This document shows, piece by piece, positions 41,106 through 43,749 of a stretch of DNA of 64,000 nucleotides. The notes beneath the pieces are model-generated. The model did not search any database, was not told where the DNA came from, and saw only the letters and a list, made by a program, of their open reading frames with translations. This stretch comes from a virus (Duplodnaviria > Caudoviricetes), in the IMG/VR virus record IMGVR_UViG_2517572207_000003. One strand, given 5' to 3'. Position 1 is the first letter of the stretch, and every line of letters begins with the position of its first letter. The translations under genes and the position numbers were made by a program.

Positions 41106-42536
41106 TCAACCAAATGAAAATACATTTTTGAATTTAATATTTGCAAAAGATAATACAAATGCGTCGGCCCTATCCGGTGAGGGTAGGCCGCGCTTTTTCA
41201 TATCCTCTTTTCGTTCTAAAAATATCTTTCCGTTGCTACCCATCCGCCATTTTCGGGAAGTGAGCTGCGTTATAAGTTTCTCGTCATCTGGCAATTGCAG
41301 TTCACCCGGCTTGCCAAGCACATAGTTGCTCATATTAGCCTCAAGCATTTCTTTGACATGTCCCCACTGTTCAGCCCCTAGATTCCCATAATGACCGTCT
41401 TCCGCTGCTGATCCATTGTTAACTGGAATGATGGTGTAGCCTAGACTTTTCTCCTCATTAATCTCATTCAATCTATCTGTTACAGCTCCACCTATTCCAC
41501 TATCATCAATTCTTATTTCTACTTCGTCCATTTCTGTACGCTCTGCCTTTACATCATCAACCAGGCGTAATACCCAGCCTGTGGTTGTCATAGTGTCCTG
41601 CTTGTGGTGGAAATGAGTCTTTACCACCTTGCCTCCCATACGTGCGTACATGGTTGTCTCATCGTCTCCAAAACGTGCAACGTCAACACCTACAAATAGC
41701 TTTGTTCCAGAAGGTTCAATTTTAACTTCATCTTTGGCAAATTCCGCAGCTTCCAGAGAGATGAATGTATCAGATTCACCACGGGGAAACTCGCCTTCTA
41801 CACGAACGCGCCATACATCGCTTCCCTCTCCATATTTCCGTTTAAGCATAGCGATGTTTTCTTTACTCGTTCTCGGACTGTCCAAACAGGATACCTTACG
41901 TGTTTTATAATCAGATCTATCCTTATTGTGCGAATCATAAAAAACACCCGACGTTTTTGTCGGGTTTCCACACATCAGTATTTTATTGAACTCACCCGAC
42001 AACGTACCTAAAATGGCTTCCATGATTGGATCAGCAACACCCGATGCCTCATCCACAACAAATAGCATGTAGTCCTCATGAAAGCCTTGCATATTTTCAG
42101 GCTTGGTTGCTGTCCGAGCTGTAGCGAACCATCGTTCCTCATAATTTTTCATGTATATTTTGGTCTTAGTCCACTTAAGGATTCGTTTCAGCACCGGACT
42201 TTTAGATTGCCATTTATTTATCTCAGCCCATAACACGTCATGTAGTTGCTGCCTTGTAGGAGCTGTACAAATTACCTTTGGATATGGGAAACACGACAAG
42301 AACCATAGAGCTGTTGCCGCTTCTAATCCTGTTTTTCCTACGCCTTGACCTGAACGTACTGAAACACGAGGATTATTAGCTAAATCCATTAGAGTGCTTG
42401 CCTGCCAATCATCAGGATAGAACTTAAGCATCTCTTGACAGAACAATGTGGGATTCTTGCGATACTCAGGAATCCTTTTCTTGAATGCTTGAAGTCTCCG
42501 TTTCGTCTCCGGTGAGTCCTTCGTCTTCATCGCCAA
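41106..42536 (-). CDS. terL: Terminase large subunit
   Basis: SGQGVGKT Walker A, VVDEASG Walker B, GVDVARFGDD nuclease, SPDRADA. Confidence 0.95.
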   Translation of the reverse strand: MAMKTKDSPETKRRLQAFKKRIPEYRKNPTLFCQEMLKFYPDDWQASTLMDLANNPRVSVRSGQGVGKTGLEAATALWFLSCFPYPKVICTAPTRQQLHDVLWAEINKWQSKSPVLKRILKWTKTKIYMKNYEERWFATARTATKPENMQGFHEDYMLFVVDEASGVADPIMEAILGTLSGEFNKILMCGNPTKTSGVFYDSHNKDRSDYKTRKVSCLDSPRTSKENIAMLKRKYGEGSDVWRVRVEGEFPRGESDTFISLEAAEFAKDEVKIEPSGTKLFVGVDVARFGDDETTMYARMGGKVVKTHFHHKQDTMTTTGWVLRLVDDVKAERTEMDEVEIRIDDSGIGGAVTDRLNEINEEKSLGYTIIPVNNGSAAEDGHYGNLGAEQWGHVKEMLEANMSNYVLGKPGELQLPDDEKLITQLTSRKWRMGSNGKIFLERKEDMKKRGLPSPDRADAFVLSFANIKFKNVFSFG

Positions 42537-43749
42537 CCACCGCCTCTACCCAATCGTCAATTAAATCGTCTTCTGAATTTCCTTCTCCAGTGACCTTTGC
42601 CCTTTCAAGCTCAAGTTTCTCACGTTGCATCTTAAGTTTCTCGTCTTCAACCATCCGTTTATGTTTGTCTGGAAGCAGATCCATGTATTTAGTTAGCACG
42701 TCCAATGCCTTGGTTTTGTCGTGTAGCTTTACGCTCACTCCATCCTTACCCTGCTTGACTTCTGAAACCAGAGTTCCATCAATTTCATCGCTGTTTTTAA
42801 AAGAGACATAATTGTATCTGTACTTCTTCGTTTCTCCAGTGTCAGGATCAAACACAGGATCTCCTTCTAAGCCAAGAACATCTTCTTCCTTTTGACCGAA
42901 TTCTACGTAATCCGTAATGTCTGCGAAAGCAATCTTCATGTACTCCATTAGAACTCGCTGAGCATTTAAACCCACCTCGTCGATCATTGTTTCCTTGTGC
43001 TGCCGAATAATGTTTTGGATTTCAACTTTCTTCAACAGAGCGAAACCAATCTGATAGGCAGTTTTCTTACTGTATCCCGCCGCAATCGCTGACCTGGTAG
43101 CGTTGAAGTCTCGAAGGTATTCATAAGTGAATATCCTTTGCTTAGGCGTTAATCCATCCTCATCGGGAATTTCCGGTTCAGGTTCTTCAACAACCGTTGG
43201 AGCACTCTGTACTTTTTTGGAACGTTCCATATTACCGGAGCGTTCCGGTACTTTTTTCGGAGCGCTCCGTATTTTTGGAGTTTCCCCCAGCTCTTTTGAT
43301 AGTGCATCAACAGTAAGCAGAGTAGCATATACTTCCCTCGGCTTATCACCTTGATATGTACCAATGAATTTGCGCCGCTCCATTTCATCAATCAGTCGGG
43401 CCGCTCTGCTATAACCTATCCTCATTCTTCTCTGTAATAAAGAAACCGAGGCTTGTTTGGCCTCGGCTACAATTTGGACAGCTTTTAGAAAAAGATCGTC
43501 TGGATATGATGTTGTATCTTCATCTTTCTTTGCAGGTTCATTTTTTTTATCAGTTTCATCTTCATCGGAACGTTCCGTATGTTTCGCTTCTCCAATCAAA
43601 CTCTCCCACTTATCTTTAGCCTTCCATCCTCTTACCGTACCTTCAGATACACTAAGCTGAGATGCTATATCTGTGAGACGTATGTTGCCGGAACTGGCTT
43701 TGTATAAATCAAATGCTTCGTCCCGTTTAGGATCTCTCTTTCGTCCCAT
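42466..43749 (-). CDS. terS: Terminase small subunit with N-terminal HTH and an inserted FtsK-gamma domain
   Basis: [39 protein letters not shown] gamma; [26 protein letters not shown] TerS core. Confidence 0.9.
   Translation of the reverse strand: [427 protein letters not shown]

Follow-up and report, generated by a model that had tools for sequence, protein, structure and literature searches.

A prophage small terminase subunit carrying an FtsK-type gamma winged helix, probably as a dispensable DNA-binding accessory, with candidate packaging boxes inside its own gene

The DNA analysed here is a stretch of 64,000 nucleotides (nt) from the IMG/VR virus record IMGVR_UViG_2517572207_000003 (Duplodnaviria; Caudoviricetes), hereafter called the window, and its subject is the terS gene, which encodes a small terminase subunit (TerS) with a gamma domain of the FtsK/SpoIIIE type. 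The window corresponds to C1:3194241-3258240 of a 5.86-Mb chromosome, on a replichore where the minus strand is leading, and the nearest database proteins to TerS, at 97% identity, come from Paenibacillus polymyxa and its relatives; the host is a P. polymyxa-group genome. The layout of terS in window coordinates is given below with the evidence in brackets, where ORF is open reading frame, aa amino acids, HTH helix-turn-helix, pLDDT the predicted local distance difference test of the AlphaFold2 model and pN/pS the ratio of nonsynonymous to synonymous polymorphism; the boxes are short DNA words treated further on.

42466..43749, minus strand: terS, 427-aa small terminase subunit of three modules (ORF with an ATG start; Pfam; PHROG 2606).
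43600..43749, minus strand: N-terminal HTH module, aa 1-50, PF10668 Phage_terminase (Pfam; AlphaFold2 helices).
43501..43599, minus strand: linker 1, aa 51-83, disordered, acidic and poorly conserved, holding box 1 (pLDDT; identity; pN/pS).
43324..43500, minus strand: FtsK_gamma winged-helix module, aa 84-142 (Pfam; PDB sequence and fold matches; pN/pS).
43153..43323, minus strand: linker 2, aa 143-199, mostly disordered, holding boxes 2 and 3 (pLDDT; synonymous-site conservation).
42619..43152, minus strand: Terminase_2 part, aa 200-377, with its own HTH DNA-binding domain and the oligomerisation core (Pfam; profile and fold matches).
42466..42618, minus strand: C-terminal tail, aa 378-427, helical and then acidic and disordered, with the stop codon (pLDDT below 50 at 388-427).

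That the protein is a small terminase subunit is virtually certain. It matched the TerS family PHROG 2606 with an E value of 3.1e-86, in two stretches that leave out the gamma segment, and also a second TerS family, PHROG 51. Pfam recognised, in order, PF10668 on aa 1-50 (E 6.9e-20; 71 bits against a cut-off of 22), FtsK_gamma PF09397 on aa 84-142 (E 2.9e-25; 88.2 bits against 30.6; profile positions 4-62 of 63, thus 59 positions) and Terminase_2 PF03592 on aa 200-377 (E 1.2e-45; 156 bits against 26.1), and a profile scan of the genome itself placed the TerS gamma at C1:3237564-3237740. The NCBIfam model TerS_not_xtmA aligned with aa 1-72 only, at 71.6 bits and under its full-length cut-off of 120, and from the NCBIfam FtsK model only the C-terminal 73 residues were matched. 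The FtsK_SpoIIIE alpha/beta ATPase motor was absent from the 427-aa protein in the Pfam and NCBIfam searches, and the protein does not fall in the translocase class. The original prediction, drawn from the letters alone, of a gamma winged helix inserted between the N-terminal HTH and the core of a 427-aa TerS was borne out in location, size and domain order: the peptide it quoted corresponds to residues 84-140, the FtsK_gamma hidden Markov model (HMM) matched above its gathering cut-off, and the word inserted suits both the way PHROG 2606 bypasses the segment and a clean in-frame difference of ~80 aa between sister proteins described below.

Searched by sequence against the PDB, the gamma segment alone found 2j5p, 2ve8/2ve9 and the XerD-gamma fusion 5dcf with E values of about 1e-10, and as a 53-sequence family profile it reached about 1e-18 with solved FtsK gamma structures. 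An AlphaFold2 model of TerS built from the 53-sequence family alignment contained confident blocks at aa 1-52, 84-153 (pLDDT about 90) and 200-387, separated and followed by segments with pLDDT below 50 (aa 55-82, 155-189 and 388-427), with a predicted template modelling score (pTM) of 0.27. In the N-terminal HTH (pLDDT about 88-90), helices were modelled at 7-18, 25-32 and 36-46. Using Foldseek, the gamma block superposed on the KOPS-bound gamma of Pseudomonas aeruginosa, 2ve9 (KOPS, FtsK orienting polar sequences), with a target template modelling score (TM) of 0.90-0.92 and a root-mean-square deviation (rmsd) of 1.2 Å over 60 columns; over 2ve9 and 2ve8 together the target TM was 0.83-0.92 and the rmsd 0.9-1.7 Å. 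The Terminase_2 part matched, as a profile, the SF6-like TerS 3zqp/3zqq (5e-18) and the DNA-binding domains 4zc3 (1e-14) and 2cmp (2e-14), and its HTH superposed on the SF6 DNA-binding domain with a TM of 0.86-0.91 (Foldseek matches 3zqq, 2cmp and 4zc3). TerS is thus modelled as a string of folded beads with disordered linkers between them. Since the Terminase_2 part brings its own HTH, homologous to that of SF6 G1P (2cmp/4zc3), each subunit would bear three putative DNA-binding modules, namely the PF10668 HTH, gamma and the Terminase_2 HTH.

Escherichia coli FtsK is reported to become KOPS-blind when R1300, E1303 and E1306 of its recognition helix are changed (PMC2680272). The residues found at these reading positions, including those of a free-standing 65-aa gamma protein encoded by the same prophage, are as follows.

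E. coli FtsK: R-E-E (from PMC2680272).
TerS: R118-D121-E124 (from the gamma/PDB alignment).
Host FtsK: R-D-E.
65-aa solo gamma protein: K-D-E.

Along the recognition-helix stretch QRRMRIGY(S/T)RAARLID, the TerS gamma and host FtsK hardly differ. The host's family was sampled at 18 genera, and the FtsK gamma was read by eye as R-D-E in 17 of the 18; a script anchor caught 10, all R-D-E. Within the 53-sequence TerS family, position 1 is R in 47, K in 5 and S in 1, position 2 is D in 33, E in 17, G in 2 and H in 1, and position 3 is E in all 53. Because FtsK-type residues are kept at the positions whose change makes FtsK KOPS-blind, it is plausible that this gamma is competent to contact DNA in the FtsK manner.

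We then asked how gamma evolves relative to the rest of the protein. Across ten genome-derived genes, pN/pS was 0.18 for gamma and 0.18 for Terminase_2, 0.25 for the N-terminal HTH, 0.45 for linker 2 and 0.84 for linker 1. Identity to the query was measured over 44 full-length homologs less than 70% identical to it (taken from 67 rows picked by a custom gamma-helix pattern stricter than Pfam): 0.62 for gamma, 0.64 for the N-terminal HTH, 0.62 and 0.55 for the two Terminase_2 halves, 0.33 for linker 2 and 0.08 for linker 1. Twelve residues of the gamma segment are invariant in the 53 sequences. Gamma is therefore under purifying selection and is not decaying. The original prediction had raised the case of a domain sporadic and decaying in relatives; it is repeatedly absent from close relatives, yet its pN/pS equals that of the core.

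TerS gamma and host FtsK gamma share 64% identity in protein and only 61% in DNA, which rules out a recent capture from the present host. To trace gain and loss, a tree was built by a quick method from 113 TerS (77 with and 36 without gamma) on 242 backbone columns, with gamma and linkers removed and eight N-terminally truncated entries excluded; the sample was drawn from the best 120 matches of the search and favours gamma-bearing proteins. The gamma state changed at least 14 times on this tree, at least 10 of the changes being forced by well-supported branches (label shuffles averaged 30.7), a count that does not split gains from losses. Two pairs of sister proteins, P0041/P0064 (269/317 identical) and P0086/P0111 (257/313), are 82-85% identical apart from a clean in-frame indel of ~80 aa. 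Gamma and backbone distances correlate over 2926 pairs (r = 0.74), which is better explained by an old acquisition followed by repeated loss or exchange than by many fresh captures. With at least 10-14 gains or losses in close relatives, gamma is, as judged from this tree, an accessory that is not essential for packaging. Could it then be a neutral passenger, a frozen accident of domain shuffling? Its frequent loss in close relatives that keep the terS gene itself would agree with that, but a pN/pS as low as in the core beside 0.84 in linker 1, the twelve invariant residues, the retained reading positions and at least two further independent TerS-gamma fusions (see below) make such a history scarcely credible, and we disfavour it.

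The second feature of terS is a set of near-palindromic 10-bp words, GGAACGYTCY, in the DNA that codes for the two linkers.

43567..43576, strand-neutral: box 1, GGAACGTTCC, a perfect palindrome in linker 1, coding E59-R60-S61 (candidate TerS-binding or pac box).
43237..43246, minus strand: box 2, GGAACGCTCC, in linker 2, coding E169-R170-S171 (pattern match).
43219..43228, strand-neutral: box 3, GGAACGTTCC, in linker 2, coding E175-R176-S177, 18 bp from box 2 (pattern match).

Synonymous-site conservation, 0.62 over terS as a whole, rises to 0.77-0.81 over aa 151-180 of linker 2 and, as expected, peaks also over the overlap with the neighbouring large-subunit (TerL) frame. In this terS and its close relatives, the (T)ERS tripeptides of the linkers are always coded by GGAACG(T/C)TC(C/T). 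The window holds six strand-matches to the pattern where 0.36 are expected, and none of 100 shuffles reached six. In the whole 5.86-Mb chromosome, only two clusters of boxes were found, both in terS genes of the PF10668 type and read as ERS in one and as GNVP in the other; the second lies in another prophage, at C1:3834572-3835462 on the minus strand (297 aa). A third terS near C1:3123.8-3124.8 kb, also on the minus strand, of 297 aa and near-identical to the second, has three boxes, two of them with one mismatch. In both 297-aa genes the boxes stand at 24-bp spacing just past the HTH, in a Gly/Asn-rich repeat region where they are read as G-N-V-P or G-N-A-P. The gamma-less relatives L015 to L018 likewise carry boxes after the HTH, L015 with three copies in three different frames. 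One of these relatives, L018 (DASQNU010000228.1), is titled a Candidatus Bathyarchaeia metagenome-assembled genome and has a boxed Bacillales-type PF10668 + Terminase_2 terS, 49% identical; contamination or a binning error probably accounts for the title, an archaeal virus being the less likely reading.

To look beyond the terS relatives, IMG/VR was scanned for two boxes 6-30 bp apart, which yielded at least 104 loci on contigs picked by the box pair only, and the HTH was then called in them by a custom HMM made from aa 1-52 of the TerS alignment. The HTH was encoded in 85 of the 104 listed contigs, and in 74 of the 104 the box pair starts between -1 and +341 nt past the HTH end on the coding strand. 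The offset was +7 in 37 and +10 in 14 of these 74, and the five gamma-bearing loci lie at +282 to +341. In the HTH-bearing frames of the listed loci, 169 boxes are spread over frames 0, 1 and 2 as 55, 39 and 75, with at least two frames used in 62 of 85 loci. The same HTH and boxes are joined to Terminase_2 in 27 of the 85 listed loci, to gamma plus Terminase_2 in 5, and in 53 to a frame without a match to either. Because the word is kept in all three frames, the box is, by this comparison, a DNA element and not a peptide motif. In P22, the packaging site pac is a 22-bp sequence inside terS (PMC9611059); with that precedent, and because the boxes are uniquely clustered in terS beside the HTH, we infer that they are a candidate TerS recognition site (pac). 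A search of the open literature by titles and abstract openings, with subscription journals and supplements lying outside it, returned no description of these boxes, and of the 12 papers in which GGAACGTTCC occurred none was on phage packaging by its title.

The same distribution has to be weighed against a role other than pac, with the boxes serving either as recombination junctions of the terS module or as operators through which the N-terminal HTH controls the late operon. They do sit at a module boundary (7-10 nt past the HTH in 51 of the 74 listed loci), the HTH and boxes are combined with different C-terminal parts, and a junction role would explain the mosaic of HTH and core combinations as well as the gain and loss of gamma. 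The gamma cassette lies between box 1 and boxes 2-3, and these flanking boxes share a reading frame; recombination between them would delete gamma in frame and thus offers a simple route to its loss. A palindrome would also suit a dimeric regulator. Nevertheless, maintaining a 10-bp word in all three frames over diverse contigs needs selection on DNA, for which junction homology is insufficient, and the grouping of 2-4 copies every 18-24 bp is reminiscent of arrays bound by proteins. A pac within terS has precedent, and junction or operator roles are compatible with a pac role. We therefore regard a purely non-pac function as unlikely, though it deserves serious weight.

We next examined what gamma itself might read. 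Two isolated Bacillus cereus phages, vB_BcM_Sam46 and vB_BcM_Sam112, were matched by tblastn with the gamma segment alone, and the first gene of each carries the annotation "FtsK gamma domain-containing small terminase subunit". Their description (Sci Rep 2021, PMC8190038) gives an N-terminal FtsK_gamma at residues 11-70 with conserved DNA-binding sites and Terminase_2 at 107-230, and proposes either KOPS/SRS-like loading sites in the phage genomes (SRS, SpoIIIE recognition sequences) or TerS acting on host SRS and mispackaging host DNA. The gamma-TerS fusion as a kind is thus already published, and so, in essence, is the inference on packaging and transduction.

Applied to the present TerS, this idea takes two forms: gamma may read the host's polar SRS/KOPS octamers on phage DNA, where TerS would be loaded or oriented and the packaging direction set, or it may launch packaging in a set direction from the host chromosome, with more generalised transduction as the outcome, as in the original prediction and in the proposal of the Sam46 authors. 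The reading head speaks for both: the R-D-E positions are the same as in host FtsK and largely conserved in the TerS family, the recognition helix is near-identical to the host's, and gamma superposes on KOPS-bound gamma. The host chromosome is also suitably marked, as GAGAAGGG, cited as the B. subtilis SRS in PMC8190038, occurs 164 times on the leading and 29 times on the lagging strand, and is the fourth most skewed among octamers with at least 150 occurrences.

The phage sequences do not follow suit. In the 64-kb window, GAGAAGGG occurs twice, both times on the minus strand (10065 and 21321) and never near terS, and exact and one-mismatch scans for GAGAAGGG, GGGNAGGG and GAGAAG over the window and 10 related loci found no cluster near terS. 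In ~182 kb made up of the prophage part of the window and nine related loci, GAGAAGGG is distributed 7:0, which ranks 14th of 56 composition-matched octamers; as these 56 words together lie 86% on the coding strand, its forward-strand bias vanishes as a polarity signal. Sam46, the one gamma-TerS phage with a mapped cut, is without the PF10668 HTH; its headful initiation cut has been placed about 4.5 kb upstream of terS, and its authors report that the B. subtilis SRS was not found in the Sam46 and Sam112 genomes (both PMC8190038). The intergenic segment that holds the cut, at about 40,820-40,896 of the Sam46 record (1821-1897 of locus L144), contains a G-rich purine tract, TTTGGGGGAAAGG..., and no SRS-like octamer. 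Repeated gamma loss also counts against a role in defining packaging. The original prediction that gamma affects pac choice by reading oriented words hence found no support in the motif statistics, which are indirect and do not address binding itself; pac choice through gamma is further weakened by its repeated loss, and a box element tied to the N-terminal HTH fits better. Both forms of SRS reading, on phage DNA and on the host chromosome, are accordingly held to be improbable.

Besides DNA, the E. coli gamma also touches XerD, through a TEKRKA patch (PMC2965235), and the XerD-gamma fusion 5dcf was among the structures matched here. The aligned patch reads AEAKQA in TerS and LEAKQA in host FtsK. 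Gamma might thus work by protein contacts, either mimicking the partner of an Xer-type recombinase in concatemer or dimer resolution or excision, or acting as a segregation decoy in lytic growth. The second gamma gene of the prophage bears on this possibility.

49840..50037, minus strand: free-standing 65-aa FtsK_gamma protein in the early/middle prophage region (Pfam 3.8e-22, aa 7-64).

This solo gene lies between a YopX gene and unassigned ORFs, a place that suits a diffusible factor better than a part of the packaging machine, and its product could be a diffusible mimic of the host gamma; solo gamma genes are reported in phages, with role unknown, in PMC8190038. For TerS, on the other hand, the prophage has its own tyrosine integrase, the patch has E96 in 45 of the 53 sequences of the family but is variable next to it (at K98, Q in 33 and K in 18; at Q99, seven different residues), and a covalent tie to an oligomeric packaging protein has no obvious logic for recombinase activation. 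A mode of action by protein contacts is consequently considered very unlikely.

Derivation of the TerS gamma from the solo gamma is not supported, their identity (42%) being below that of either to host FtsK gamma (49% for the solo protein), and the solo gene is no regular partner of gamma-TerS, being found in none of 10 related loci in the flanks available (8 with the full 8 kb upstream). The genome profile scan found four gamma domains in total. That of host FtsK/SpoIIIE sits in an 894-aa frame. An observation apart concerns a 1374-aa frame on the 366-kb second replicon (C2:118734-122855, minus strand), which has a gamma in the middle (74.6 bits) and a C-terminal FtsK-type ATPase region, with an N-terminal half that is topoisomerase/TOPRIM-like by eye only; it is probably a conjugation or plasmid-transfer protein. 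Across 151 species genomes sampled from the host's family, each had one FtsK-size gamma frame, and a second gamma match occurred in only 10 of the 151, the present genome included (among the matches listed, 150 of 165).

Weighing these results, we favour, with a rough probability of 0.6, the reading that gamma adds to the TerS ring a further DNA-binding module, maintained by selection yet dispensable, and that pac is more probably given by the boxes together with the PF10668 HTH. TerS is expected to act as an oligomeric ring whose peripheral HTH domains recognise pac (PMC9611059). In the proposed mechanism, such a ring would display a crown of tethered gamma winged helices, each holding DNA as FtsK does, by the conserved recognition helix; beyond a general affinity for DNA, G-rich words of the FtsK/SpoIIIE type would probably be preferred. 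This accessory DNA-binding cassette would raise the avidity of the ring for the concatemer, or its capture radius. It would be helpful and not required, and would for that reason be selected where present yet repeatedly lost. The start of packaging would be set by a separate element, the 10-bp boxes in the linker-coding DNA of terS, which are probably read by the PF10668 HTH.

Several points weigh against this combination. The avidity role is an argument from architecture, and if gamma keeps an FtsK-type specificity, its cognate word is equally rare in phage and host (GAGAAGGG occurs once in the ~45-kb prophage part and about once per 30 kb in the chromosome, with 193 sites in 5.86 Mb), which leaves any sequence-specific benefit unexplained. 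At the published Sam46 cut (about 40,843), neither an SRS-like word nor a box was found within about 100 bp. The palindromic GGAACGTTCC alone cannot give direction, and the boxes might serve recombination or regulation instead of packaging. Among public sequencing runs, the best match shared 0.29 of the sampled words; all matching entries were contig sets, in which DNA ends are invisible, and no RNA entry was among those listed, the two raw-read RNA runs having been linked by species label only. The gain and loss record comes from a quick tree of a biased sample. Finally, the Pfam matches of the adjacent TerL candidate are all under the cut-off (Terminase_3 1.1e-3, Terminase_6N 0.014 and P-loop families).

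Around terS, the following late genes were assigned.

41106..42536, minus strand: TerL candidate, 476 aa, directly downstream of terS (position and sub-threshold Pfam matches).
38747..40129, minus strand: portal (PF04860, E 1.4e-33; Pfam).

The terS and TerL open frames share 71 nt (42466..42536), the TerL ORF starting at 42536. Because terS synonymous conservation climbs to 0.81 over aa 401-420, at this overlap, it fits real dual coding better than a miscalled TerL start. Some 46 kb around these genes have the look of a complete temperate siphovirus prophage, with lysis genes near 18-20 kb (holins and an M15 endolysin), tail genes (Prophage_tail, SPP1_Dit and a 1804-aa ORF of tape-measure size), a replication module (Phage_rep_org_N, a DnaC/IstB-like ATPase and a beta sliding clamp), a ParB_N protein, an HTH_3 repressor candidate and the tyrosine integrase, which crosses the right window edge. 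The clamp is a full three-domain DNA polymerase III beta subunit (54080..55198, minus strand) that stands beside the DnaC/IstB-like loader and the replisome organiser. Two ORFs run opposite to the late genes. One, of 272 aa (40272..41090, plus strand), lies between TerL and portal and has no significant Pfam match; its N-terminal HNH-type nuclease region was matched in PADLOC by PDC-M68A (6.5e-25), SduA (1.4e-19) and endonuclease effectors of the type found in cyclic-oligonucleotide-based antiphage signalling systems (CBASS), and it is possibly a moron of the prophage that codes for a defence or homing nuclease. The other, of 190 aa (43936..44508, plus strand), lies directly upstream of terS, has a signal-peptide-like N-terminus and neither a Pfam nor a PADLOC match, and looks like a moron between the late regulator region and terS.

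How TerS finds the DNA to be packaged was called unclear and controversial in a 2022 review (PMC9611059), in which the word "FtsK" appears nowhere. Gamma is the best-understood sequence-reading module of bacterial DNA pumps, and a terminase equipped with it gives a handle on this question, while natural sister terS genes with and without gamma are ready-made controls for it. The fusion itself, being in print, is not claimable as new; the common natural form is the three-module TerS and not the published two-module one, and the boxes provide a concrete pac candidate for a large class of Firmicute prophages. Packaging guided by host SRS is improbable; should gamma bias packaging towards host DNA, it would matter for how often transduction occurs among Paenibacillaceae living in soil or with plants. 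Its most far-reaching version, in which gamma guides oriented generalised transduction by SRS, the solo gamma tunes or masks the sites, and the boxes are a widespread, frame-independent pac signal of PF10668-type terS genes, appears quite improbable as a whole.

The spread of the three-module form was estimated from the best 120 listed matches of one search with the TerS protein, with gamma counted from the Pfam column. PF09397 was present in 80 of these 120, which belong to Paenibacillus, Brevibacillus and Cohnella and include identities as low as about 44%. Some database relatives bear names such as "cell division protein FtsK", a label that is wrong, since the TerS protein has no motor domain. 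In a large protein database, a further entry, P0192 (261 aa), is a small terminase of the PF07141 (Phage_term_sma) type with gamma at its N-terminus. As the Sam46 type and P0192 are both distinct from the three-module form, gamma has joined small terminases on two or three occasions at the least, and these independent fusions argue for its usefulness. Outside terminases, gamma forms the C-terminal part of P0236 (328 aa), an Mrr_cat restriction endonuclease, and P0219 joins HTH_28 to gamma; the domain seems to be reused as a DNA-targeting module.

Compared with known systems, the closest published counterpart is the TerS of Sam46 and Sam112, which likewise has gamma, a flexible linker and the Terminase_2 HTH in one polypeptide; BLASTP aligned aa 84-248 here with 11-155 there (58/165 identities, 35%; E 2e-22). 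In contrast, gamma is at the extreme N-terminus of the Sam46 protein, which is without the PF10668 HTH and has 254 aa against 427, its core is not alignable with the present one by BLASTP past gamma and HTH, and no GGAACGYTCY box was found in the 6.4 kb of Sam46 examined. The nearest relatives of Sam46 TerS are gamma-less proteins of about 145 aa, and PF03592 with PF09397 was seen in 2 of its 120 listed matches. Because the gamma-less relatives of each form are far closer to it than the two forms are to each other, the three-module TerS is, by these alignments, a fusion independent of the Sam46 type and much commoner.

Among gamma-less relatives, the PF10668 + Terminase_2 TerS of Bacillus phages PM1, phi4J1, phiS58 and BceA1 and of the deep-sea thermophilic phage D6E has the same HTH and core at 45-52% identity, matched in two pieces that omit gamma, but lacks roughly 80-110 aa comprising gamma and part of the linkers; none of the 338 matching phage records covered 80% or more of the TerS query. 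The Terminase_2 part resembles SF6/SPP1 G1P by profile (5e-18 with 3zqp/3zqq) and fold (target TM 0.86-0.91), whereas G1P has one DNA-binding domain per subunit and the present TerS about 200 more N-terminal residues with a further two. As in P22, a cis-acting packaging signal within the terS coding sequence is proposed here, predicted from sequence; the P22 pac is a single asymmetric site of 22 bp, whereas the linker-coding DNA here carries a near-palindrome of 10 bp in 2-4 copies spaced by 18-24 bp. Finally, the gamma itself is like that of FtsK/SpoIIIE (2ve9, 2j5p) in fold, recognition helix and KOPS-reading positions, but in place of the alpha/beta motor it has disordered linkers on both sides and is displayed on a terminase.

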